Assembly: GCA_046723475.1 (NCBI GenBank)
Contig: JBKOUQ010000147.1
Coordinates: 23,487-87,486 of the forward strand
DNA length: 64,000 bases
Origin: Candidatus Methylomirabilota bacterium
GTDB taxonomy: Bacteria; Methylomirabilota; Methylomirabilia; Rokubacteriales; CSP1-6
Direction of reading: 5' to 3'
The notes beneath the pieces are model-generated. The model searched no databases. It was not told the origin of the DNA and worked only from the letters and a program-made list of their open reading frames with translations. Positions within the stretch are counted from its first letter, which is position 1. Every line of letters starts with the position of its first letter. Positions 10,987 to 52,077 of the stretch are shown one piece after another. The translations under genes and the position numbers were made by a program.

Positions 10987-11775
10987 TTACTTGCCGGTCC
11001 AGCGGGGCGCGCGCTTCTCCAAAAACGCCTTGGCGCCCTCGACGCGATCCTCCGTGGTCCGCAGCAGCGTCGAGAGATCGCCCTCCAGGCGCAGCCCGTC
11101 CGCCAGCGACAGCTCGAGCCCCTTCACGACCGCTTCCTTTGCGTAGCGCAGCGCCACCGGCGCCTTCGCGGCCATCGTGCGCGCGAGCTCGGTCGCGGCC
11201 TTGAGCGCCTCGCCGGTCGGGACGACGCGCTCGACGAGCCCGATGCGCAACGCCTCGTCCGCGGGGATGCGCGCGCCCGTGAGGATCATCTCCAACGCCT
11301 TGCCGCGGCCTACCAGGCGTGGCAGGCGCTGCGTGCCCCCGCCGCCGGGAATGATCGCGAGATCGATCTCGGTGAGACCGAGCTGGGCGCCGGCGGCCGC
11401 GACGCGGATGTCGCACGCGAGGGCCAGCTCGAGCCCGCCGCCGAACGCAAAGCCATTGATGGCGGCGATGATCGGCTGCCAGCAGCGGTCCATCGCCTGG
11501 CGGAAGTCGACGCGGCGCCGCTGCTCGCGGAACTGAACCGGCACGAGCGGAGCCACGAACTCCCGGATGTCCGCCCCCGCCGAGAACGCGCGCTCGCCGG
11601 CCCCGGTCACGACGACGGCCTTGACGTCGTCGTCGGTGGCCAGGCCTTCGAAGCAGCGCGTGAGCTCGCGCCGCATGGCGTCGTTCATCGCGTTGTGCAC
11701 GTCGGGGCGGCGCATCGTGATCGTCGCGACGGCGTGGTCGACGTCGTACCGGATGGCTTCGTAGGGTGCGCTCAC
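10987..11775 (-). CDS. Enoyl-CoA hydratase/isomerase (crotonase family)
   Basis: VTGAGERAFSAGADI...AAINGFAFGGGLELALACD is the crotonase oxyanion-hole signature. Confidence 0.9.
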   Translation of the reverse strand: MSAPYEAIRYDVDHAVATITMRRPDVHNAMNDAMRRELTRCFEGLATDDDVKAVVVTGAGERAFSAGADIREFVAPLVPVQFREQRRRVDFRQAMDRCWQPIIAAINGFAFGGGLELALACDIRVAAAGAQLGLTEIDLAIIPGGGGTQRLPRLVGRGKALEMILTGARIPADEALRIGLVERVVPTGEALKAATELARTMAAKAPVALRYAKEAVVKGLELSLADGLRLEGDLSTLLRTTEDRVEGAKAFLEKRAPRWTGK

Positions 11776-11799
11776 ACGCGGCTCCTGTCCGTCAAGTCG

Positions 11800-12948
11800 T
11801 CAGCGGATGATCTTGCGCGCCCGCAGATCGGCGCGCGCCTGCTCGTCGTAGCCGGCCGCGCGCAGCACGTCGTCCGTGTGCTGGCCGAGCGTCGGCGAGG
11901 CGCCGACGTCGCGCGTGGGCGTCGCGGAAAACAACAACGACGAGCCGGGCAACGTGAGACGGCCGACGTCGGGGTGATCGTACTCCCGCGCGAGGCCGTG
12001 ATGTCGCGTGAGGGGATGGCGGCGAAAGTCGTCGATCGAGTGCACGGGACCGGCGGGAATGTCCGCCTGTCGCAGCACCTCGAGCCACGCATCGCGCGGC
12101 CGCGAGCGGAAGCGCGCCTCGAGGATCGGCAGCAACACCTCGCGGTTGTCGAGCCGCAGCATCCAGGACGCGAAGCGCGGATCGTGCGCGAGGTCGTCCA
12201 GGCCGAGCGCCTGGCAGAGCTTGACCCAGAACGATTGGTTGCCGCACGCGAGGAAGAGCCATTCGCCGTCGCCCGCTTGATAGAGCCGGTACGTCGGATT
12301 GTCGCGAAACACGGATTGCTTGCCAGGGTAATCGACGAAGTTGCCCGCCTGGAGCGCGGTCACCGCGTGGAGCAACGACGTCTCGACCTTCTGCCCGACG
12401 CCGGTGCGCTCGCGCACGAACAGCGCCGCCAGCACCGCTTGCGCGGTGAGGGCGGCCGCGTAGTAATCGACGAGCGCGACGCGGATATACTGCGGCGGGC
12501 CGCCGAAGCCCTGCAGCGCCATGAGCCCTGCGAGCCCCTGCAGCAGCGGATCGAATCCGGGACGATCCGCGTACGGACCGGTCGAGCCGAAGGCGGTCGT
12601 CGAGCAGTAGATCAGCCGCGGATTCAGCGCACGGAGCGCCGCGTCGCCGACGCCGAGCCGATCGGCGACACCGGGGCGCATGTTCTCCATCACCACGTCG
12701 GCGGAGTGTGCGAGACGCTCGACGACCCCGCGTCCCTCGGCATTCTTCAGATTGAGCGCGATCGACCGCTTGCCGCGGTTCCACGCGAAGAAGCCGGGCA
12801 GCTCGCGGAACGAGTCGCCTTCGAGCGACTCGACCTTCACGACGTCGGCGCCGAGGTCGGCCAGCATGGTCGCCGCGTACGAGCCCGCAATGTAGCTCGT
12901 GAGATCGATGACGCGCACGCCATCCAGCGGCGGCCGGGCATCGGCCAT
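11800..12948 (-). CDS. CoA-transferase family III (CaiB/BaiF-like)
   Basis: LDGVRVIDLTSYIAGSYAATMLADLGADVVKVE and GFDPLLQGLAGLM are family-III hallmarks. The overlapping 673-aa track ORF is an Arg-rich artefact. Confidence 0.9.
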   Translation of the reverse strand: MADARPPLDGVRVIDLTSYIAGSYAATMLADLGADVVKVESLEGDSFRELPGFFAWNRGKRSIALNLKNAEGRGVVERLAHSADVVMENMRPGVADRLGVGDAALRALNPRLIYCSTTAFGSTGPYADRPGFDPLLQGLAGLMALQGFGGPPQYIRVALVDYYAAALTAQAVLAALFVRERTGVGQKVETSLLHAVTALQAGNFVDYPGKQSVFRDNPTYRLYQAGDGEWLFLACGNQSFWVKLCQALGLDDLAHDPRFASWMLRLDNREVLLPILEARFRSRPRDAWLEVLRQADIPAGPVHSIDDFRRHPLTRHHGLAREYDHPDVGRLTLPGSSLLFSATPTRDVGASPTLGQHTDDVLRAAGYDEQARADLRARKIIR

Positions 12949-12954
12949 CGGCGC

Positions 12955-14058
12955 TCAGCGCGCCACGCGGCGCACGATCAGCTCGCGGTGGTACTCGGCG
13001 TCGCCGTACAGCGGCTCCAGCGCCTTGGCGCGCTTGAAGTACAGATGCAGGTCGTACTCCCACGTGAAGCCGATGCCGCCGTGCACCTGGATGGCCTCGC
13101 CGCACACCTTGCGCGACGCCTCGTTGATGTACGACTTGGCCACAGACGCGGCCAGCGCGGCGTCCTCGGCGCCGCTGTCGAGCGCCCACGCGGCGTAGTA
13201 CGTCGCCGAGTGCGAGTTCTCGACCTCGAGCAGCATCTCGGCGCACTTGTGGCGGATGGCCTGAAACGAGCCGATCGGCTGGCCGAACTGCTCGCGCACC
13301 TTCGCATAGTGCACCGCCATGTCGAGGCAGCGCCGCGCGGCGCCGAGCATCTCCGCGGCAGCGCCGACGGCGCCGCGCAGGAGCAGGAACGTCAGCGCTT
13401 CGGCCGGCAGCCGCGCCTCGGCGGCGACCGTCGCTTCCGCGAGGGTGATCTGGGCAAGCCTCATACCGGGATCCATGCCGGTGAGCGGCACGATCGACAC
13501 ACCCGGCGCGGACGTTTCGACCACGTACACCGCGAGCGTCCCGCCGGTGCGCGCCGGGACGAGGACGACGTCGGCGACGTGACCCCACGGGACGAACTGC
13601 TTGACGCCGGTCAGCGCGACCTTGCCGCCGCGCTCCTCGGCGCGCGTCTCGACCGCTTCGGGGCGGAAATCGAGCGCGCGCTCCATCAACGCGACCGTCG
13701 CCCTCGCGCGACCGCCCGCGATGGCGGCGAGCCACCGACTCTTCTGCGCCGGGCCTGCGAAGCGGTCGATCGCCATGGCGGCGAGCACGGTCGGCAGATA
13801 CGGCGACGGGCACGCGGCGCGACCGAGCTCTTCTTGCAGAATCGCCGTCTCGACGAGACCGAGCGCGCTGCCTCCGACGTCCTCCGGCAGGGCCAGGCCG
13901 AGCCAGCCGAGCTGCGCGATCTCCTTCCAGAGTGCCTCGCTCTCACCACGCGGATCGTCCCAGAGCGTGCGCACGTGGGCCGGCTTGCTGTGCTCGTCGA
14001 GAAATGCGCGAGCCGAATTGCGAAGCAGCTGCTGATCGGGACTGAACGAAAAGTCCAC
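12955..14058 (-). CDS. Acyl-CoA dehydrogenase
   Basis: ACAD fold with C-terminal ...QVHGGIGFTWEYDLHLYFKRA. Confidence 0.9.
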   Translation of the reverse strand: MDFSFSPDQQLLRNSARAFLDEHSKPAHVRTLWDDPRGESEALWKEIAQLGWLGLALPEDVGGSALGLVETAILQEELGRAACPSPYLPTVLAAMAIDRFAGPAQKSRWLAAIAGGRARATVALMERALDFRPEAVETRAEERGGKVALTGVKQFVPWGHVADVVLVPARTGGTLAVYVVETSAPGVSIVPLTGMDPGMRLAQITLAEATVAAEARLPAEALTFLLLRGAVGAAAEMLGAARRCLDMAVHYAKVREQFGQPIGSFQAIRHKCAEMLLEVENSHSATYYAAWALDSGAEDAALAASVAKSYINEASRKVCGEAIQVHGGIGFTWEYDLHLYFKRAKALEPLYGDAEYHRELIVRRVAR

Positions 14059-14067
14059 GCTCGCCTC

Positions 14068-15282
14068 CTACGCCTTCGACACGCGGTCGGCGCGGATCTC
14101 TTTGGGCAGCCCGAGCACGCGCTCACCGATGACGTTCTTCTGAATCTCGGAGGAGCCCGAGTAGATCGTCCCCGCGCGTGCCCACAGGAACGCGTACGCC
14201 CAGCTCGAGCGCACGCCCGACGACGAGTCGACGTCGAGCGTCGTCTCCTCGAGGCCGCCGTCGATGATCTGTCCGTAGGGTCCGAGGATCTCGAGCGCGA
14301 GCTCGTAGTAGCGCTTCTCGAACTCGCTGTACGACAGCTTCGTGATCGACGACGCCGCGCCCGGAGAGTCGCCTTTCTGCAGCGCCGACAGCACGCGGAG
14401 CGCCGCGTAGCGCTGGACTTCCATCTCCGCGTAGACGCGGCCGAGCTTGCTGCGCACGACGGGATCCTCGAGCAGCGGCTTGCCGCCGCGCGAGAGCATC
14501 ATCGCTGCCTCGACGAGCCGTTCGAAGGCCGACGCGTAGCGGGTGACGCGCGCCATCGAATTGCCCCCCCGCTCGAAACCCAGCGTGGTCTGCGCGATCT
14601 CCCAGCCCTGTCCGAGCCGGCCGATGAGGTCGCGCCGCTCGGCGCGCGCGTTGGTCATGAAGACCTCGTTGAACTCCGAGCTGCCGGTGATCTGCTTCAG
14701 CGGCCGCACCTCGACACCGGGCTGGCGCATGTTGAACAGAAGGCACGAGATGCCCTTGTGCTTGGGCACGCTCGGATCCGTGCGCGCCAGCAGGATGCCG
14801 AAGTCCGCGATGTGGCCGCCGCTCGTCCAAATCTTCTGGCCGTTGACGACGAAGTGATCGCCCTTGTCCTCGGCCCGTGTGCGCAGGCTCGCCAGGTCGG
14901 ACCCGGAGTTGGGCTCCGAGTAGAGCTGGCACCACATCTCCTCGGCCGTGAGGATCTTCCGGAGATACCGCTCTTTCTGCTCTGGTGTGCCGTGCACGAT
15001 GATCGTCGGCCCGATGAAGCCGACGCCGAGGCCGTTGATCGGCGCGGGCGCGTTGGCGCGCGCCATCTCGTCCGCGACGATCGCCTGCTGCATCGGCGTC
15101 GCGCCGCGGCCGCCGTACTCTTTGGGCCAGCCCAGGCCCACGTAGCCGGCCTCGTACATCGTGCGATGCCACGCGCGTCGCTGCTCGAGGGTCGTCAGCT
15201 CGGTGCGCGGCGTGTTCGCGGCGAACCACGCGCGCGTTTGATCACGAAACGCGCGATCGTCGGGCGAGAGTGTCAGATCCAT
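14068..15282 (-). CDS. Acyl-CoA dehydrogenase
   Basis: CQLYSEPNSGSDLASLRTRAE, GQKIWTSGG and ...YSGSSEIQKNVIGERVLGLP match ACAD N-, middle and C-terminal signatures. Confidence 0.9.
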   Translation of the reverse strand: MDLTLSPDDRAFRDQTRAWFAANTPRTELTTLEQRRAWHRTMYEAGYVGLGWPKEYGGRGATPMQQAIVADEMARANAPAPINGLGVGFIGPTIIVHGTPEQKERYLRKILTAEEMWCQLYSEPNSGSDLASLRTRAEDKGDHFVVNGQKIWTSGGHIADFGILLARTDPSVPKHKGISCLLFNMRQPGVEVRPLKQITGSSEFNEVFMTNARAERRDLIGRLGQGWEIAQTTLGFERGGNSMARVTRYASAFERLVEAAMMLSRGGKPLLEDPVVRSKLGRVYAEMEVQRYAALRVLSALQKGDSPGAASSITKLSYSEFEKRYYELALEILGPYGQIIDGGLEETTLDVDSSSGVRSSWAYAFLWARAGTIYSGSSEIQKNVIGERVLGLPKEIRADRVSKA

Positions 15283-15354
15283 CGCAGGCCTCCAGGCGAA
15301 TGGACGTTTCTAGCACGCACGATGCGGCGAGGCAAACCGGCGGCGACGTATCGA

Positions 15355-35086: not shown

Positions 35087-35533
35087 CTATCTCGGGCGCC
35101 GGCCGAAGATGCCGAGCCCGCGCACGGTCATGACGACTTCATCGCGCTGGTTCAGCACCTCCGTGAACGTACGCACGATCCCGCGGTCGGGCTTGCTCCG
35201 TGACGGCACCACGTCGATGACGGTGAACCGCGCGCGCAGCGCGTCGCCGGGTCGCACGGGCGCGAGCCAGCGGATCTCATCGCAGCCGGGCGAGCCGAGC
35301 GAGGCCGTGTCGGACAGGAAGCTGTCCCACATGAGTCGCATCATGATGCCGATGGTCTGCCAGCCGCTCGCGATGAGGCCGCCGAACACCGAGTGCCTCG
35401 CTGCGTCTTCGTCGACGTGGAACGGCTGCGGATCGTACTGACGCGCGAAGGTGACGATCTCGTCCTTCGTCAGCGTCCGCGCCGGCGACTCACGCACCTG
35501 TCCCGGCGTGAAGTCCTCGAGATAGAGCGGCAC
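35087..35533 (-). CDS. MaoC-like dehydratase (hotdog fold)
   Basis: FARQYDPQPFHVDEDAARHSVFGGLIASGWQT. Confidence 0.85.
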   Translation of the reverse strand: MPLYLEDFTPGQVRESPARTLTKDEIVTFARQYDPQPFHVDEDAARHSVFGGLIASGWQTIGIMMRLMWDSFLSDTASLGSPGCDEIRWLAPVRPGDALRARFTVIDVVPSRSKPDRGIVRTFTEVLNQRDEVVMTVRGLGIFGRRPR

Positions 35534-35541
35534 GCGCGCGC

Positions 35542-36708
35542 TCAGTAGGAGCGCGGCATGCCGAGGACGTGCTCGCCGATGTAGGCCATCACGAGGTTTT
35601 GATTCACCGGCGCCGTCTTGTACAGGCGCGCCTCGCGGAACTTACGCTCGACGTCGTATTCCTCGGCGTACCCGTAGCCGCCGTGGCAGTCGATACACGC
35701 GTTGCCGGCCTCCCATGCCGCCTCCGCAGCGAGGAACTTCGCCATGTTCGCCTCGGCGCCGCATGGCTCGCCGGCGTCGAACAACGCGGCCGCCTTGTCG
35801 CGCATCAGGGCCGCGGCGGCGACGCTCATGTAGGCGCGCGCGATCGGGAACTGCACGCCCTGGTTGGCGCCGATCGGCTTGCCGAAGATCACGCGCCCAC
35901 TCGAGTACGCGACGGCCTTGTCCGTGAACCACCGGCCGTCGCCGATCGACTCGGAAGCGACGAGAATACGCTCGGCGTTCATGCCGGACAGGATGTACGA
36001 GAAGCCCTTGCCCTCCTCGCCCACGAGGCAGTCGGCCGGGATCTCCATGTCGTCGAAGAAGAGCGCGTTCGTCGAGTGGTTCATCATCATGCGCAGCGGC
36101 CGGATCTCGAGCCCTTTGATGCCACGAATATCGATGAGGAACACGCTGAGCCCGTTGGTGCGGCGCTCGACCTGGTCCGCCGGTGTCGTGCGCGCGAGCA
36201 AGAGCATCAAGTCGGATTGCAGCGCGCGCGAGATGAAGATCTTCCGGCCGTTGATCACGTAGCGGTCGCCCTTGCGCACCGCCGTCGTCTTCAGCTGGGT
36301 CGTGTCGGAGCCCGCGTCGGGCTCGGTGACACCGAACGCCTGCAGGCGCAGCTCGCCCGTCGCGATCTTCGGCAGGTAGCGCTGCTTCTGCGCCTCGCTG
36401 CCGTGGCGCAGCACGGTGCCCATGATGTACATCTGCGCGTGCACCGCCGAAGCACTGCCGCCGTTGGCGTGAATCGTCTCGAGAATCAGCGCGCCATCCC
36501 GGATCGGCAACCCCGCGCCGCCGAATTCTTGAGGGATCAGCGCGCCGAGGTAGCCGGTCTCGGTCAGCTCGCGCACGAACTTTTCGGGGTACTCGCGTCG
36601 GGCGTCGAGCTCGCGCCAGTACTCGCCGGGGTAGCGGCGGCAGATCTCGGTGACCCCTTTCTCCAGGTCGCGCTGCTCGTCCGTGAGGCGGAGCGGTATC
36701 GTCGCCAT
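35542..36708 (-). CDS. Acyl-CoA dehydrogenase
   Basis: FGVTEPDAGSDTTQLKT..., GRKIFISRA, ...CHGGYGYAEEYDVERKFREARLYK. Confidence 0.9.
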   Translation of the reverse strand: MATIPLRLTDEQRDLEKGVTEICRRYPGEYWRELDARREYPEKFVRELTETGYLGALIPQEFGGAGLPIRDGALILETIHANGGSASAVHAQMYIMGTVLRHGSEAQKQRYLPKIATGELRLQAFGVTEPDAGSDTTQLKTTAVRKGDRYVINGRKIFISRALQSDLMLLLARTTPADQVERRTNGLSVFLIDIRGIKGLEIRPLRMMMNHSTNALFFDDMEIPADCLVGEEGKGFSYILSGMNAERILVASESIGDGRWFTDKAVAYSSGRVIFGKPIGANQGVQFPIARAYMSVAAAALMRDKAAALFDAGEPCGAEANMAKFLAAEAAWEAGNACIDCHGGYGYAEEYDVERKFREARLYKTAPVNQNLVMAYIGEHVLGMPRSY

Positions 36709-36717
36709 CGTGTTCCC

Positions 36718-37503
36718 CTAACGGCCCTTGAACTCCGGTTTGCGCTTCTCGTTGAACGCCCGCACGCCCTCGAGTCGGTCCTCGGTGACCACAGTCGCGT
36801 TGTACGCCTCGATGGCGAGGATCATCGCGGTGTCGAGGTCGGTCTCGCTGCCGTAGGCGATCGCCTTCTTCGCCTGTCGGACGGCGATCGGGCCGTTGCG
36901 CGCGATCGTCGTCGCGATCTCCAGCGCCTTGGCCTTCGCCTGACCGGCGGGCACCAGGTGATTGACGAGCCCCGCCGCCTTCGCCTCGTCGGCCTTGATG
37001 CGCCGGCCCGTGAAGATCAGCTCCTTGGCAAGCGGCACGCCGACGATGCGCGGCAACAGCTGCGTGCCGCCGATACCCGGAAAGATGCCGAGCGTGGTCT
37101 CCGGTACGCCGAACACGGCGGTCTCGCTCGCCACGATGAAGTCCGAAAGAATGGTGAGCTCGCAGCCGCCCGCGAGTGCCCAGCCCTCGACCGCGGCGAT
37201 CACCGGAATCGGACAGCGAAGCACGCGCATCGCGCCCTGCTCGAAGATCACGTGCTGCGCGCGCCACGCCTCATCGCTCATGCCGTTGCGCTCTTTGAGG
37301 TCCCCGCCCGCGCAGAACGCGCGGTCGCCCGCGCCGGTCAGGATCACCGCGCGCGCGTCGGGATCGCGCGCGAGCGCGTCGAAGCAGGCGAGGATGTCCT
37401 CGCCCATCGCGGTGTTCATCGCGTTCTGCTGCTCGGGGCGATTGAGGGTCACCGTGACGACGTGGCCGTTGGCGGAGCGATCGACGAGCAGGTGGCGATA
37501 CAT
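36718..37503 (-). CDS. Enoyl-CoA hydratase/isomerase
   Basis: LTGAGDRAFCAGGDLKE...IAAVEGWALAGGCELTILSD. Confidence 0.9.
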   Translation of the reverse strand: MYRHLLVDRSANGHVVTVTLNRPEQQNAMNTAMGEDILACFDALARDPDARAVILTGAGDRAFCAGGDLKERNGMSDEAWRAQHVIFEQGAMRVLRCPIPVIAAVEGWALAGGCELTILSDFIVASETAVFGVPETTLGIFPGIGGTQLLPRIVGVPLAKELIFTGRRIKADEAKAAGLVNHLVPAGQAKAKALEIATTIARNGPIAVRQAKKAIAYGSETDLDTAMILAIEAYNATVVTEDRLEGVRAFNEKRKPEFKGR

Positions 37504-37535
37504 GGGCGCTTATTGTAGCGGGGACCGCGAGTGCG

Positions 37536-38726
37536 TCATTGCACGACGCGCTGGCTCTGGAGATTCCGGACGTCGTCGAGCGTGTAGCCGAGCCACGTGA
37601 GCACGTCCGCGGAGTCCTCGCCGAGCAGCGGCGGCACGCGGCGCACGCCCGGACGTTGACCGTCCCAGCGCAGCGGCAGCCCGATCGTCCGGTAGTCACG
37701 CAGCCGTGGGTGCGGCGCCGACATGACCAAGCCGCCGGCGGCGGTCTGCGGCTCCTCGAGCACGCGATCGATGGTGAGGATTGGCGAGGCCGGGACGCCG
37801 GCGCCGCGCATGCGGTCAACGACCTCCGCCGTCTTCAGCGGCCGCGTCAGCGCGGCGACCGATTGCGCGAGCGCCTCACGATGGCGCACGCGCGACGGGT
37901 TGTCGACGAAGCGCGGATCGGAGGCGAGCGCGTCGGCGCCGAGTGCGTCGGCGAGCCGCCGGAACAGCGCGTCCGAGCCGGCCGCGATCATCACGTAGCC
38001 GTCGGCCGTGGGGAACGCCTGGTACGGTGCGATCATCGCCGTGCCCGAGCCTTGCGGCTGCGGCACCGCGCCGTCGCCGAAGTAGCCCGCGATGTGGTAC
38101 GAGACCCACGTCAACGCCGTCTCGAAGAGGGCCGTCGTCACCTCCACCGCCCGCCCCGTCCGATCGCGCTCACGGAGCGCGGCGACGATGCCGAGCGCGG
38201 CCCACATGCCGGTGCCCATGTCGACGAGCGAGGTGCCGACGCGCGCGGGCTCCTGGCCCGGATGTCCGTTGACTGACATGAGCCCGGCGTATGCCTGCAT
38301 CAGGGGATCGTAGCCGGGCAGCGAGGCGAGCGGTCCCTCGGTGCCGAACGCGGTGATCGAGCAGTACACGAGCCGGGGATTCAGCGCCGTCGCGCCGGCG
38401 AAATCGAGTCCGAGCTCGCCGATGACGCCGGCGCGCAGGCTTTGCACGAACACATCCGCGCGCCGGATGAGACGCTTGAGAATCTCGATGCCCCCCTCGG
38501 CCTTGAGGTCCAGCGCGAGGCTCTTCTTGTTGCGATTGAGCGCGACGAACACGGCGCTCTCTCGCGACCAGAACGGCGGGCCCCACGCGCGCGCATCATC
38601 GCCGCGTCCGGGACGCTCGATCTTGATGACGTCGGCGCCCATGTCGCCGAGCGTCTGGGTGCAGAAGGGGCCGGCGACGTTCTGTGTGAGGTCGGCGACG
38701 ACGATCCCGTCCAGAGGCAGAGCCAC
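37536..38726 (-). CDS. CoA-transferase family III
   Basis: GTG start gives MALPLDGIVVADLTQNVAGPFCTQTLGDMGADVIKIE. GYDPLMQAYAGLMS is present. The 83-aa track extension is rejected. Confidence 0.85.
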   Translation of the reverse strand: MALPLDGIVVADLTQNVAGPFCTQTLGDMGADVIKIERPGRGDDARAWGPPFWSRESAVFVALNRNKKSLALDLKAEGGIEILKRLIRRADVFVQSLRAGVIGELGLDFAGATALNPRLVYCSITAFGTEGPLASLPGYDPLMQAYAGLMSVNGHPGQEPARVGTSLVDMGTGMWAALGIVAALRERDRTGRAVEVTTALFETALTWVSYHIAGYFGDGAVPQPQGSGTAMIAPYQAFPTADGYVMIAAGSDALFRRLADALGADALASDPRFVDNPSRVRHREALAQSVAALTRPLKTAEVVDRMRGAGVPASPILTIDRVLEEPQTAAGGLVMSAPHPRLRDYRTIGLPLRWDGQRPGVRRVPPLLGEDSADVLTWLGYTLDDVRNLQSQRVVQ

Positions 38727-38772
38727 GGACGGCAGTGTAACAGCGGCGTCCGAGCGCGGCGAGCCGCGCCGC

Positions 38773-39129
38773 TCAGCGGTGGTATCGCGTCTCGAACAGG
38801 AGCGCGCCGCCAGGACTCGCATACGGTCCGTGGCGCATGCCCGGCGGACGGCACGCGTACATGCCCTCCGAAAACGTTCGGCCGAGCCCGAGGTCATCGA
38901 GACTGCCCTGGACGATGAGCACCTCTTCCCAGAAATCGTGCGCGATGGTCTCCGTCGTGCGGACGCCCGGGGCAAATCGCAACAGCCGCGTCACGTCGCC
39001 CGTGGCCGGATCGCGGCTGAGCACTTTCTGCTCGATCCCGGGACCGCCCGCGCCCGCCGCAGCAGAGCCGGCCACCGCTTCCCAGGGCAGATGATCAGGG
39101 CGGAAAAACTCGAGCTCGGGCTTCGGCAT
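38773..39129 (-). CDS. Cupin-domain protein (ChrR-like cupin)
   Basis: 118 aa with beta-rich sequence ...TETIAHDFWEEVLIVQGSLDD...GMYACRPPGMRHGP typical of small cupins. Confidence 0.55.
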   Translation of the reverse strand: MPKPELEFFRPDHLPWEAVAGSAAAGAGGPGIEQKVLSRDPATGDVTRLLRFAPGVRTTETIAHDFWEEVLIVQGSLDDLGLGRTFSEGMYACRPPGMRHGPYASPGGALLFETRYHR

Positions 39130-39134
39130 GCCGG

Positions 39135-39671
39135 TCAGCGTCGAGCTGGTGACGCCAGCAACGATTCAACGAGCACGTGCGCAGCCGGCGATTCCCACGG
39201 CACGGTCCCGATCGCGCGGCCGACCAGCCGGCCCTCGCGATCGATGAAGTACACCGTTGGCGGGCCCCAGACCCCGTAGATCCTGCCCGCCGTGTCGCCG
39301 CTCGTGTCGAGCAGCACCGGCGCGGTGTAGCGGCGTTCGGCGACGGTTTTTCGAACGAGGTCAGTATCCTCGCGGAACGTGACCAATCGGACTTCGAGCC
39401 CGCGATCGTGATACGCCCGGTAGAGGGCGTCGACGGAAGGCAACGCCTTCCGACAATCCGGTCACCACGTCGCCCAGAAGTAGAGGATGACGACATTGCC
39501 GCGCAGCGCCTCGAGTGTCTGCGTCTTGCCGTCGAGATCGGGCAACGATAAGGCGGGCGCCGGCTTGGGTGGCTCGTACGGCAGAATCTGCAGCGTCTCC
39601 CAGTCGGGCGCGGGCGTCGCCGCCGCCGTGAGCACGAGCACGGCGACGAGCGCCACGAGCGACCGGCTCAT
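39135..39671 (-). CDS. TlpA/ResA-like thiol:disulfide oxidoreductase, candidate selenoprotein (in-frame TGA at 39462-39464 replaces the first Cys of WCxxC)
   Basis: Signal peptide MSRSLVALVAVLVLTAAA, then ...VVILYFWATW-TGA-PDCRKALPSVDALYRAY matches FWATWCGPCR with U-x-x-C. The two track ORFs (39462..39671 and 39135..39443) are in the same frame, separated only by the TGA. A hairpin GGAAGGC-GUU-GCCUUCC starts ~10 nt after the TGA. Confidence 0.6.
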
Positions 39672-40231
39672 TTTGCCCCCGAGGCCTTGAGCGCTTGCAG
39701 CACCTCGTCGGGATTCAAGAGCTCGAGCGGGTTCTGCATGACTTTCGCATAGCGGACGACGCCCTCGCGATCGATGACGAAGTACGCGCGCTTGGCGTAC
39801 CGGTAGATCGGGCTCGCTTCGTTCATCTCCATCGCCCCGTACGCCGGTAGCATCGTGCGCCGAAAGTCCGAGAGCAGGAGGTGCTTCGTGCCGTTCTGCT
39901 TGCTGAATGCCTCGAGCGTTGCCGCGTGATCGGCACTGACGCCCACGACCTGGGCGCCTGCGGCTTCGAACTGCGGCCGGGCCGCGTCGAAGTCCGCAAT
40001 CTCCTTCGCTCAGGTCGAGGTGAACGCCTGGATGAAGGTGTAGACGACGACCGGACCCTTCGCGGTCAGGTCGGACAGCTTTACGGGCGGGGTGTTACGG
40101 TCGGCGGACTTTGGCAGCGTGAAGTCGGGGGCTTTCTCACCGACGGCCAGCGCGTGGGCCGCGCCGGCCATGATCAGCACCCCCAGCACGCCCAACAAGA
40201 CCGCCGCGCACACATGACGTCGTGGTGTCAT
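39668..40231 (-). CDS. Peroxiredoxin (AhpC/TSA-Bcp-like), candidate selenoprotein (in-frame TGA at 40010-40012 at the peroxidatic Cys position)
   Basis: RBS GAGGAGGAG precedes ATG 40231. Signal-like MTPRRHVCAAVLLGVLGVLIMAGAAHA, then ...VVVYTFIQAFTST-TGA-AKEIADFDAARPQFEAAGAQVVGVSAD corresponds to the Prx FTxVCPTEI core. Both track fragments are in-frame. ATGA overlap with the downstream Sec-TlpA gene. Confidence 0.6.
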
Positions 40232-40301
40232 CGGAGGGCTCCTCCTCGGCACAGAGGATCGCATACGCCACAAACCGCCCTCGTGCGGCCGCGGTTCCCG
40301 C

Positions 40302-41342
40302 TTATTTGCGCCCGGTGAGCTCGGCGCGCACGACGGCCGCGCCCGCGGCCAGCCCCGTGAGCTTCTGGTTGCACATGTAGCGCGGGGACCAGCCGAAGCC
40401 ACAGTCGGGGTTGAGCGTCAGCTTTTCGGCGGGACACACCTTGAGCACGCGGCGGATGCGGTTCGCGACGGAGTCCGCGGTTTCTTCCTGGAAGCCCTTC
40501 ACGTCGATGACGCCGGCGCCCAGCTCGCGGCCGTCGCCGTACTTTTGCCAGAGCTCGAGCTCGGAGAGCTCGCGACTCGCGAACTCGAGCACGAACTGGT
40601 CTGCGCGCGCCTTGAGGACACCCGGAAAGTATGGCTCGTACGAACGCGAGAAGCGTGAGCGTCCGAAGCGATTCCCGAAGCAGATGTGGAAGCCTAGCTT
40701 GGCGCGCACGCCGTCGGTGGCGAGGTTGAACAGCCGCGCCATCTCTTCGCCCGACACGTTGCCGCGCGCGGGCTCGTCGAGCTGGATCAGCTGTGCGCCG
40801 GCGGCGACAAGGCCCTTCAGCTCGGCGTTGATGACCTCCGCGAAGCGCTCGGCGACGTCCACCACGCTCTTGTACGCGCTGCCTGGATGGATCCGCGAGC
40901 CGAACGTGAGCGGGCCCGCGCACGTGGCCTTCAGCGCGCGGTGCGTGTGGGCGCGCAGGAACTCGAAGTCGCGCACGAGTCCGAACCCCGTCGACGGCAC
41001 CTCGATGCGCCCGACCGCCTCGTAGCGCTGCTGCTGGTCGTAGCCCCACGGGCCGGCCTTCCGGCGCACGGGCAGCGGCGCGATGTTCTTGATGATGCGG
41101 TAGTACGTGTCCACGTAGCCGTCCGTGCGTCGGGCCTCGCCGTCGGTAATGATGTCGATGCCCGCCGTTTCCATGTCGCGGATGGCGGTGTGCACGGCAT
41201 CGTCGAACATCTCGTCCATGTCGCCGGGGCCCATCTCGCCGGCCTCCCAGGCTTTGACAGCGGTGAACCACCAGCCGGGCTTGCCATGAGATCCGACCAC
41301 CGATGTGGGCAACAAGGGCACTTGGGTCATGCGCGAGATCAT
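40302..41342 (-). CDS. Cobalamin-independent methionine synthase C-terminal (MetE_C/UroD-like) domain protein
   Basis: 346 aa with DGEARRTDGYVDTYY, IQLDEPA and GFHICFGN...NPDCGFGWSP, a MetE catalytic-domain-like Zn site. Confidence 0.8.
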   Translation of the reverse strand: MISRMTQVPLLPTSVVGSHGKPGWWFTAVKAWEAGEMGPGDMDEMFDDAVHTAIRDMETAGIDIITDGEARRTDGYVDTYYRIIKNIAPLPVRRKAGPWGYDQQQRYEAVGRIEVPSTGFGLVRDFEFLRAHTHRALKATCAGPLTFGSRIHPGSAYKSVVDVAERFAEVINAELKGLVAAGAQLIQLDEPARGNVSGEEMARLFNLATDGVRAKLGFHICFGNRFGRSRFSRSYEPYFPGVLKARADQFVLEFASRELSELELWQKYGDGRELGAGVIDVKGFQEETADSVANRIRRVLKVCPAEKLTLNPDCGFGWSPRYMCNQKLTGLAAGAAVVRAELTGRK

Positions 41343-51705: not shown

Positions 51706-52077
51706 ATGATCCGCGCCGTGCTCGAGCGCCTCGCGGATCTCGTCAATGCCGACGCCGCCCTCGTGCGACGCGGGCGCTACCTGTCGACGCGCTTTCTCGT
51801 GGCGACGGGGCCGGTCACCTGGCTCGTGACGGTGCACGAGGGGCGCGTGACGGCGCTCGAGCGCGGGCCGTTCCTGCTGCGCGACTGGGCGTTCGCCGTG
51901 CGTGCGTCCGAAGAGGCGTGGCGCCGCTTCTGGGAGCCCGTGCCGCCGCCCGGCTATCACGACCTGTTCGCCCTCACCAAGGGCGGCCACGCCACCATCG
52001 AGGGGGACCTCCGGCCGCTGATGGCGAATCTGCGCTACGTGAAAGACATCCTCGCCAAGCCGCGCGGGAGCGCGTGA
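51706..52077 (+). CDS. SCP2 sterol-carrier-like domain protein
   Basis: 123 aa with ...ATIEGDLRPLMANLRYVKDIL C-terminus resembling SCP2 (GDl..amkL). Confidence 0.5.
   Translation: MIRAVLERLADLVNADAALVRRGRYLSTRFLVATGPVTWLVTVHEGRVTALERGPFLLRDWAFAVRASEEAWRRFWEPVPPPGYHDLFALTKGGHATIEGDLRPLMANLRYVKDILAKPRGSA

Follow-up and report, generated by a model that had tools for sequence, protein, structure and literature searches.

Two adjacent genes divided by in-frame TGA triplets

The stretch of DNA analysed here, which we call the window, comprises 64 kb of contig JBKOUQ010000147.1 from a Candidatus Methylomirabilota bacterium. It contains two adjacent minus-strand genes, each of which is divided by an in-frame TGA triplet: a TlpA/ResA-like thioredoxin-fold gene and, directly upstream of it, a BCP/PrxQ-like peroxiredoxin (Prx) gene. 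Together they make up a candidate operon for two proteins containing selenocysteine (Sec, U), and each UGA is followed by a hairpin that is a putative bacterial selenocysteine insertion sequence (bSECIS) element. The features of the pair are listed below. Counts of loci refer to a sample of 80, one genome per species and almost all labelled Rokubacteria, Rokuibacteriota, Methylomirabilota or NC10, for which the codon at the U position was read from tblastn alignments spanning the critical position.

39135..39671, minus strand: TlpA/ResA-like thioredoxin-fold gene, 178 amino acids including the predicted Sec70, with redox motif W-U-P-D-C and terminator TGA at 39137..39135
39462..39464, minus strand: in-frame UGA (residue 70), aligned with the N-terminal nucleophilic cysteine of CxxC; TGA in 79 of 80 loci
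39453..39455, minus strand: TGT codon of Cys73, the resolving cysteine of the UxxC centre, in an alignment column that is invariantly Cys
39618..39671, minus strand: predicted signal peptide MSRSLVALVAVLVLTAAA of the TlpA-like protein, recognised by eye from sequence features, with a layout that homologues share
39431..39455, minus strand: bSECIS-like hairpin, core CGGAAGGC-GUU-GCCUUCCG at 39452..39434, with 8 base pairs and a loop of 3 nucleotides
39668..40231, minus strand: BCP/PrxQ-like peroxiredoxin gene, 187 amino acids including the predicted Sec; AhpC-TSA match at 1.8e-28
40010..40012, minus strand: in-frame UGA of the Prx-like gene at the peroxidatic cysteine position (FTST-U-AKE, a TxxU motif); TGA in 72 of 72 loci
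39958..39999, minus strand: Prx hairpin, a putative non-canonical SECIS element with apical loop CCG; z = -4.3, conserved
40241..40247, minus strand: Shine-Dalgarno-like GAGGAGG, read from the sequence, 9 nucleotides upstream of the Prx-like ATG (40231)

Translation of the window shows that minus-strand positions 39671..39135 form one frame in which the TGA at 39464..39462 is the sole internal stop, so that the read-through product is MSRSLVALVAVLVLTAAATPAPDW...NVVILYFWATW*PDCRKALPSVDALYRAY...ARR. A first-pass annotation of this DNA, made by a model from the letters, had described the same single frame, split by this TGA and reading NVVILYFWATW-U, and had assigned the triplet to the first cysteine of a WCxxC motif; translation confirms the former, and the solved structure with PDB code 3kcm, ResA, TlpA and the full-length Cys homologues bear out the latter. 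When U is written as C, the product matches the Pfam families AhpC-TSA (5.4e-22, 78.5 bits against a cutoff of 26) and Redoxin (7.6e-19, 68.4 bits against a cutoff of 26.6) as one and the same continuous domain (residues 36-164) extending across the TGA. In the alignment with Cys-containing homologues that the first-pass annotation had proposed as a check, the TGA falls on the nucleophilic cysteine: U70 pairs with the first Cys of WCxxC in homologues P0001-P0006, in 3kcm (3e-23), and in ResA and TlpA. The cis-proline loop, GPPT in the TlpA-like protein, is aligned with GVPET of 3kcm, and both this loop and the W-U-P-D-C site, where U stands for the first Cys, are invariant in the homologue alignments. 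At the N terminus (MSRSLVALVAVLVLTAAA/TPAPDW) an n-region, an h-region and an AxA layout can be discerned by eye.

Scores against the NCBIfam equivalog models are all below cutoff (ResA 82.8 against 170, TlpA 61.5 against 230, DsbE 43.1 against 123, StoA 64.3 against 210). With values so far under the thresholds, orthology of the TlpA-like protein to ResA, TlpA or DsbE is rejected. The model for the WAxxUGC TlpA-family selenoprotein (NF041054) gives 61.3 bits against a cutoff of 300, and the motif here is U-P-D-C.

Conservation across species

The codon at the U position of the TlpA-like gene is TGA in 79 loci and TGC in one, and TGA occupies the corresponding position of the Prx-like gene in all 72 loci with a detectable neighbour, TGC in none. 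On both sides of the TlpA-like TGA the protein sequences are 52-75% identical with no other disruption, and in all but one sequence 103-115 codons separate the UGA from the terminator. Across about 80 species, sequence comparison shows an intact TlpA-like gene, with purifying selection acting before as well as after the UGA. Protein searches retrieve a handful of full-length Cys homologues (174-178 amino acids, with WCPDC or WCPPC, one of them annotated as a Rokubacteria TlpA-family protein) and more than 100 database entries of 99-102 amino acids that correspond to the post-TGA part alone. The latter imply that gene callers stop at the conserved TGA. Contigs carrying these fragments share the order Prx N-fragment, Prx C-fragment, TlpA N-fragment, TlpA C-fragment, which is found both in contexts syntenic with the window (Meth_synt_2 ... 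Cupin_7, CoA-transferase, ECH) and in unrelated surroundings (FMN reductase, luciferase-like, Lhr helicase). The pair is adjacent in 72 of the 80 loci; in the window, as in contigs of the L001 and L006 types, the genes either overlap or directly adjoin. Clustering of neighbours across the loci returns the Prx partner as the sole conserved neighbour, in an output whose clusters are dominated by antisense shadow open reading frames (ORFs).

These comparisons also bear on the idea that UGA is a sense codon throughout the genome (for Trp, Gly or Cys) or is read through leakily without a SECIS element. Rare variants do place other residues near the U position, namely Trp in P0009 and Leu in P0004. 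The 66 TlpA-like genes with assigned terminators, however, end in TGA (40), TAG (22) or TAA (4), and both genes in the window terminate with TGA. Because TGA is the true terminator of 40 of these 66 orthologues, UGA is not reassigned in the lineage, and recoding must depend on local context. Moreover, TGA stops mark the boundaries between neighbouring genes of the window, and a reassigned codon would not need a conserved structured element directly downstream. We reject codon reassignment on the terminator counts and the codon counts at the U position, and the wider proposal, leaky read-through included, retains a very slight probability.

Several loci depart from the common pattern. P0004 (FWATWLPDC) and P0009 (FWTTRWPDC) are otherwise full-length and could represent decay of the gene copy, an assembly error or some other recoding outcome. 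In three loci with a Cys form of the TlpA-like gene (L089, L091 and L092) the upstream Prx gene is still split in the gene calls, and its in-frame TGA is confirmed in L091 and L092; a fourth Cys form, L080, has no adjacent Prx gene. Eleven loci (L016, L019, L027, L038, L048, L059, L061, L064, L076, L077 and L082) carry metagenome-assembled genome (MAG) labels from outside the Rokubacteria, including the archaea Nitrosotalea and Nitrosocosmicus as well as Verrucomicrobiia, Binatia, Dormiibacterota and others. In these loci the operon is almost the same as in Rokubacteria (the L027 peptide equals that of L001), and the contigs are probably mis-binned.

A covarying hairpin downstream of the TlpA-like UGA

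The first-pass annotation had pointed to a perfect hairpin of 7-8 base pairs about 10 nucleotides past the UGA, and such a structure is indeed present: the core occupies 39452..39434, its first nucleotide being the 10th beyond the UGA. Below the core, G39454-C39432 pairs in the predicted fold, and a U39455·G39431 wobble is possible, if not predicted. Taken in isolation, the 25-nucleotide element has a folding energy of -14.5 kcal/mol (z = -5.3), and none of 200 shuffled sequences folds as well. Published rules for bSECIS elements specify a loop of 3-9 nucleotides, an upper stem of 4-16 base pairs, a G in the first two loop positions, and 16-37 nucleotides from UGA to loop with dG <= -7.5 kcal/mol (PMC13188914). 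The hairpin conforms to all four, with 8 base pairs, loop GUU, 17 nucleotides to the loop and -12.4 kcal/mol. To this extent the SECIS geometry claimed in the first-pass annotation stands, but the hairpin by itself is weak evidence in so GC-rich a genome. Among the 1373 TGA triplets on both strands of the window (69% GC), 13.8% precede some hairpin that obeys the rules, and 2.8% precede one of -12 kcal/mol or below. Because comparable hairpins are this frequent, a hairpin in one sequence alone is mildly unusual and only suggestive of a SECIS element.

The strong evidence for a SECIS element is comparative. We aligned 65 distinct post-UGA segments and tallied base pairing in this hairpin. Of the seven pairs in the stem core, four are invariantly G-C, and the two variable pairs (GU 28, AU 24, GC 12 and UA 1 at one; AU 61, GC 3 and CG 1 at the other) show no unpaired cell in 130. 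Among the changes are synonymous third-position changes in Pro codons that compensate Lys/Glu-to-Arg or Ser changes on the opposite arm. The covariation score is matched by none of 500 shuffles, and 88% of cells pair in this register compared with 37-66% in slid registers. In addition, the loop and 3' arm employ codons that are rare in the genes of the window (TTG and TTA account for 4.8% and 0% of Leu codons, CCT for 3.9% of Pro codons) and yet are nearly fixed across species, TTG/TTA in 65 and CCT in 62 of 66 sequences. Pairwise synonymous diversity is 0.093 over hairpin codons +4 to +10 against 0.422 in the rest of the gene, which is about 4.5-fold lower (Mann-Whitney p = 8e-5). In the Cys forms L080, L089 and L091 common codons are used and the stem cannot form. 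L092, the closest Cys form (TGT), retains a weakened remnant of the hairpin in which CGG has changed to CTG. Such loss of the hairpin in Cys forms is what would be expected if the hairpin serves recoding. Given the covariation, the fixation of rare codons, the low synonymous diversity and the loss in Cys forms, we conclude that the TlpA-like hairpin is, on comparative grounds, under selection at the RNA level. The half-decayed element of L092 looks like a recent Sec-to-Cys conversion. A scan of the window against Rfam at gathering thresholds gave no match.

Against this background we considered whether the TGA is a genuine stop, so that the locus is a pseudogene or consists of two small ORFs (69 and 102 amino acids), and the hairpin a product of chance or of amino-acid conservation. 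Gene callers do annotate the split ORFs, about 3% of window TGA triplets have an equally good hairpin, and the R-[KE]-E-L-P-S-V peptide encoded here is largely conserved in close Cys homologues too. Termination at this point, however, would cut through the active-site motif of a single thioredoxin-fold domain, and it would have to do so at the same TGA, in otherwise undisrupted genes, in 79 of 80 species with 52-75% identity on both sides. Nor does conservation of the peptide account for compensation at synonymous sites, the fixed rare codons or the reduced synonymous diversity, which are signatures at the RNA and not the protein level; the Cys forms, moreover, use common codons and lose the stem. 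The first-pass annotation had itself raised the prospect of a recent inactivating mutation with a hairpin that is not conserved, and the recurrence of the TGA in 79 of 80 loci together with a covarying hairpin clearly contradicts it. The pseudogene and sequencing-error explanations are rejected on the codon counts at the U position and the low synonymous diversity of the hairpin, and a genuine stop is effectively refuted, with hardly any probability left to it.

The peroxiredoxin-like gene

Upstream of the TlpA-like gene, ORFs 40402..40010 and 39946..39668 share a frame that is divided by the TGA at 40012..40010. The TGA stop of the Prx-like gene overlaps the start of the TlpA-like gene in the sequence ATGA at 39671..39668. 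The closest relatives of the product among solved structures are of the BCP/PrxQ type (2ywn/4g2e, 2cx3 and 3hjp), and U aligns to their peroxidatic cysteine. The catalytic Thr and Arg (AKRAYFVID) align with those of PDB 2ywn, and in the motif FIQAFTST-U-AKE the Pro of PxxxTxxC is replaced. The NCBIfam scores are below cutoff for BCP (53.8 against 140), PrxU (NF040737, 44.5 against 270) and Prx-SUH (NF045827, 40.6 against 298). The N terminus resembles a signal peptide, ending AHA/LAV, and the mature protein lacks any Cys. These features identify the upstream gene as a predicted second selenoprotein gene, one that the first-pass annotation had passed over.

In the long hairpin that follows the Prx-like UGA, 85% of cells pair, whereas slid registers reach 26-48%; both partners have changed in five pairs, and the score is matched by none of 500 shuffles. 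A group of relatives (L055, L070, L075-77, L083, L086 and L088) has a different hairpin, CUCCUCG-GCUU-CGAGGAG, which begins 9 nucleotides past the UGA and is rule-conforming. Two SECIS solutions appear to exist for one Prx gene family.

The inserted residue and the interpretation of the locus

We consider it very probable that the two genes constitute a selenoprotein operon of the Rokubacteria/Methylomirabilota in which Sec is inserted in a SECIS-dependent manner at the TlpA-like and Prx-like UGAs; for the TlpA-like gene this upholds the selenoprotein that the first-pass annotation had proposed. That the inserted residue is Sec we infer from the established bacterial Sec pathway. Use of Sec in Methylomirabilota has literature support at the level of the phylum: the 2026 review by Zhang et al. 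(PMC13188914) reports, on the basis of Deng et al. 2026, a Methylomirabilota MAG in which 63 selenoprotein genes are predicted, more than in any bacterial selenoproteome to date, and Sec-type [NiFeSe] hydrogenases have been reported in Methylomirabilota (PMC13582414).

SECIS-dependent recoding might instead insert Cys, by means of a SelC*-type tRNA(ReC) and SelB. Several lineages that use Sec possess a tRNA(ReC), by which UGA plus SECIS is decoded as Cys (PMC13582414), and no sequence feature separates Sec from Cys insertion. It is hard to explain, however, why a costly UGA and hairpin would be kept in 79 of 80 species for the sake of Cys when a single mutation to TGC or TGT suffices and has occurred. 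Moreover, tRNA(ReC) is enriched in UxxU genomes and is not reported for Methylomirabilota (PMC13582414), and neither tRNA(ReC) nor tRNA-Sec was found in the window and the related loci examined. We assign Cys insertion a small probability.

Several observations weigh against the assignment of the locus as a selenoprotein operon. The genes selA, selB, selC and selD are all missing from the 64-kb window and from the roughly 740 kb of related loci, which is uninformative for a genome of several megabases. ARAGORN found no tRNA-Sec in the window and 92 loci, the window being without any tRNA. A Pfam scan of about 50 window ORFs detected no SelA, SelB, SelD, CcdA or DsbD, and tblastn with Escherichia coli SelA, SelB and SelD gave no match in the window and the related loci. 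No NCBIfam selenoprotein model, and no TlpA/ResA equivalog model, is matched at cutoff. The Prx hairpin breaks the loop-G rule, its loop reading CCG here but CCU in the majority of relatives, and the 2.8% of window TGA triplets that precede a strong rule-conforming hairpin limit what one sequence can say about the TlpA-like element. The sequence, furthermore, reads the same for Sec insertion and for Cys insertion by a tRNA-ReC-type tRNA. Lastly, there is no CcdA, DsbD or ScsB gene in the window or as a conserved neighbour of the operon, and we infer the export of the two proteins and their partnership from their N termini and from the arrangement of the genes.

Relationship to known systems

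Bacterial selenoproteins with a TxxU peroxiredoxin motif and those described as UxxC 'Prx-like thiol:disulfide oxidoreductase' (PF00578) are listed families (PMC1088965; PMC13188914 Table 1). Catalogues have included UxxC TlpA/Prx-like and TxxU Prx selenoproteins since 2005, and the class is therefore already known. The TlpA-like gene matches the PF00578/cd02966 UxxC description and not the UGC-type TlpA selenoprotein. With the catalogued UxxC families it shares the AhpC-TSA/Redoxin domain, Sec as the first residue of UxxC, widespread Cys homologues and a bSECIS element after the UGA. As far as descriptions can be compared, those families come mainly from marine metagenomes and Deltaproteobacteria, whereas the genes described here belong to soil and groundwater Rokubacteria/Methylomirabilota, in which they are near-universal and fixed in an operon with a Sec-peroxiredoxin. 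A review of selenoproteins mentions operon pairings of Prx with SelW-like and of Prx-like with AhpD-like proteins (PMC13188914), and our literature search returned no description of a Rokubacteria Sec-Prx/Sec-TlpA operon.

ResA of Bacillus subtilis, TlpA of Bradyrhizobium and the Geobacter protein 3kcm belong to the same fold family as the TlpA-like protein and resemble it in the active site (FWATWCPPCR compared with FWATWUPDCR), the cis-Pro and, as predicted for the TlpA-like protein, an N-terminal export signal or anchor. They differ in using Cys, and a cytochrome-maturation or Sco context is absent here. For the Prx-like protein, PrxU and Prx-SUH (TxxU) offer a parallel in that Sec stands at the peroxidatic position with conserved Thr and Arg; the Prx-like protein differs from them in its predicted export, in replacement of the Pro of PxxxTxxC, and in a hairpin without loop G. 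The SECIS elements of E. coli fdhF and fdnG are likewise coding-region stem-loops that lie a short, fixed way from the UGA and have G-U in their small apical loop (for the TlpA-like hairpin, 9 nucleotides to the stem and 17 to the loop), but they have no sequence similarity to the TlpA-like hairpin. The fdhF element has a conserved bulged U, and none is seen in the TlpA-like hairpin.

A system that works like the proposed pair is the ScsB-TlpA-PprX pathway of Caulobacter crescentus, which carries out peroxide reduction in the cell envelope (Cho et al. 2012, PMC3322552). It combines an exported BCP/PrxQ-type peroxiredoxin with an exported TlpA-like reductant, as is predicted for the pair described here. 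In the Rokubacteria pair, by contrast, both catalytic residues are predicted to be Sec, the genes are translationally coupled, and the Prx has no resolving Cys.

Proposed mechanism and function

As the ribosome reaches each UGA, SelB carrying Sec-tRNA(Sec) would bind the hairpin, and Sec would be inserted. The TlpA-like product would then have a selenenylsulfide redox centre at W-U-P-D-C, and the Prx-like product would be a TxxU selenol peroxidase; both proteins are predicted to be exported. In the cell envelope the latter would act as a 1-Sec peroxiredoxin that reduces peroxides. Because it has no resolving Cys, it may be recycled by a partner, for which the adjacent Sec-thioredoxin-like protein is the candidate, possibly through an Se-Se intermediate. 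The Sec-thioredoxin-like protein might in turn be re-reduced by a CcdA/DsbD-type membrane reductant encoded elsewhere. The signal-peptide-like N termini, the operon linkage, the lack of a resolving Cys and the Caulobacter precedent lead us to suggest that the pair probably forms an exported Sec-peroxidase/Sec-reductant relay.

A bolder proposal, which we advance tentatively and at somewhat less than even odds, is that the relay is an all-selenium pathway for envelope peroxides operating through an intermolecular Se-Se bond, that it is near-universal in Rokubacteria, and that the Prx-like mRNA uses a bSECIS class without the loop guanosine.

Other features of the window

One further gene lies close to the pair:

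38773-39129, minus strand: Cupin_7 (ChrR-like cupin) gene, 118 amino acids, starting 6 nucleotides after the TlpA-like stop

It is probably co-transcribed with the TlpA-like gene, is conserved only in syntenic contigs, and has no NCBIfam match. Two similar gene sets on the minus strand, at 10987-15309 and 35087-38990, contain acyl-CoA dehydrogenase(s), a family III CoA-transferase and an enoyl-CoA hydratase; the second also includes a MaoC dehydratase and flanks the selenoprotein operon. Same-frame adjacent gene pairs separated by TGA alone occur at 11802 and 12957 on the minus strand and at 52075 on the plus strand. These are ordinary boundaries (acyl-CoA dehydrogenase/CoA-transferase/enoyl-CoA hydratase; unknown ORF/alpha-beta hydrolase), and we reject them as cases of recoding. 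When the window was screened for other TGA triplets in frame with coding-like flanks, ordinary gene boundaries alone came up, with the limit that its strict length and GC filters missed both known cases too.

Implications

The concept of Sec decoding is left unchanged by these findings. The TlpA-like gene is best filed as a clade-wide addition to a known kind of selenoprotein, accompanied by an unannotated selenoprotein partner. The consequences for annotation are considerable, since gene callers split both genes at the TGA: hundreds of family entries are meaningless fragments of 70-100 amino acids, and no curated NCBIfam model would rescue them. Recognising the pair would correct the annotation of a module that practically all sampled Rokubacteria genomes contain. 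It would also enlarge, by two enzymes that are both predicted to be exported, the selenoproteome of a phylum for which the largest bacterial one was recently reported. In addition, the operon may offer a natural system for Sec-to-Sec redox relays and for SECIS diversity, the latter because it presents two hairpin solutions for the Prx gene and Sec-to-Cys reversions in which decay of the SECIS element is visible.

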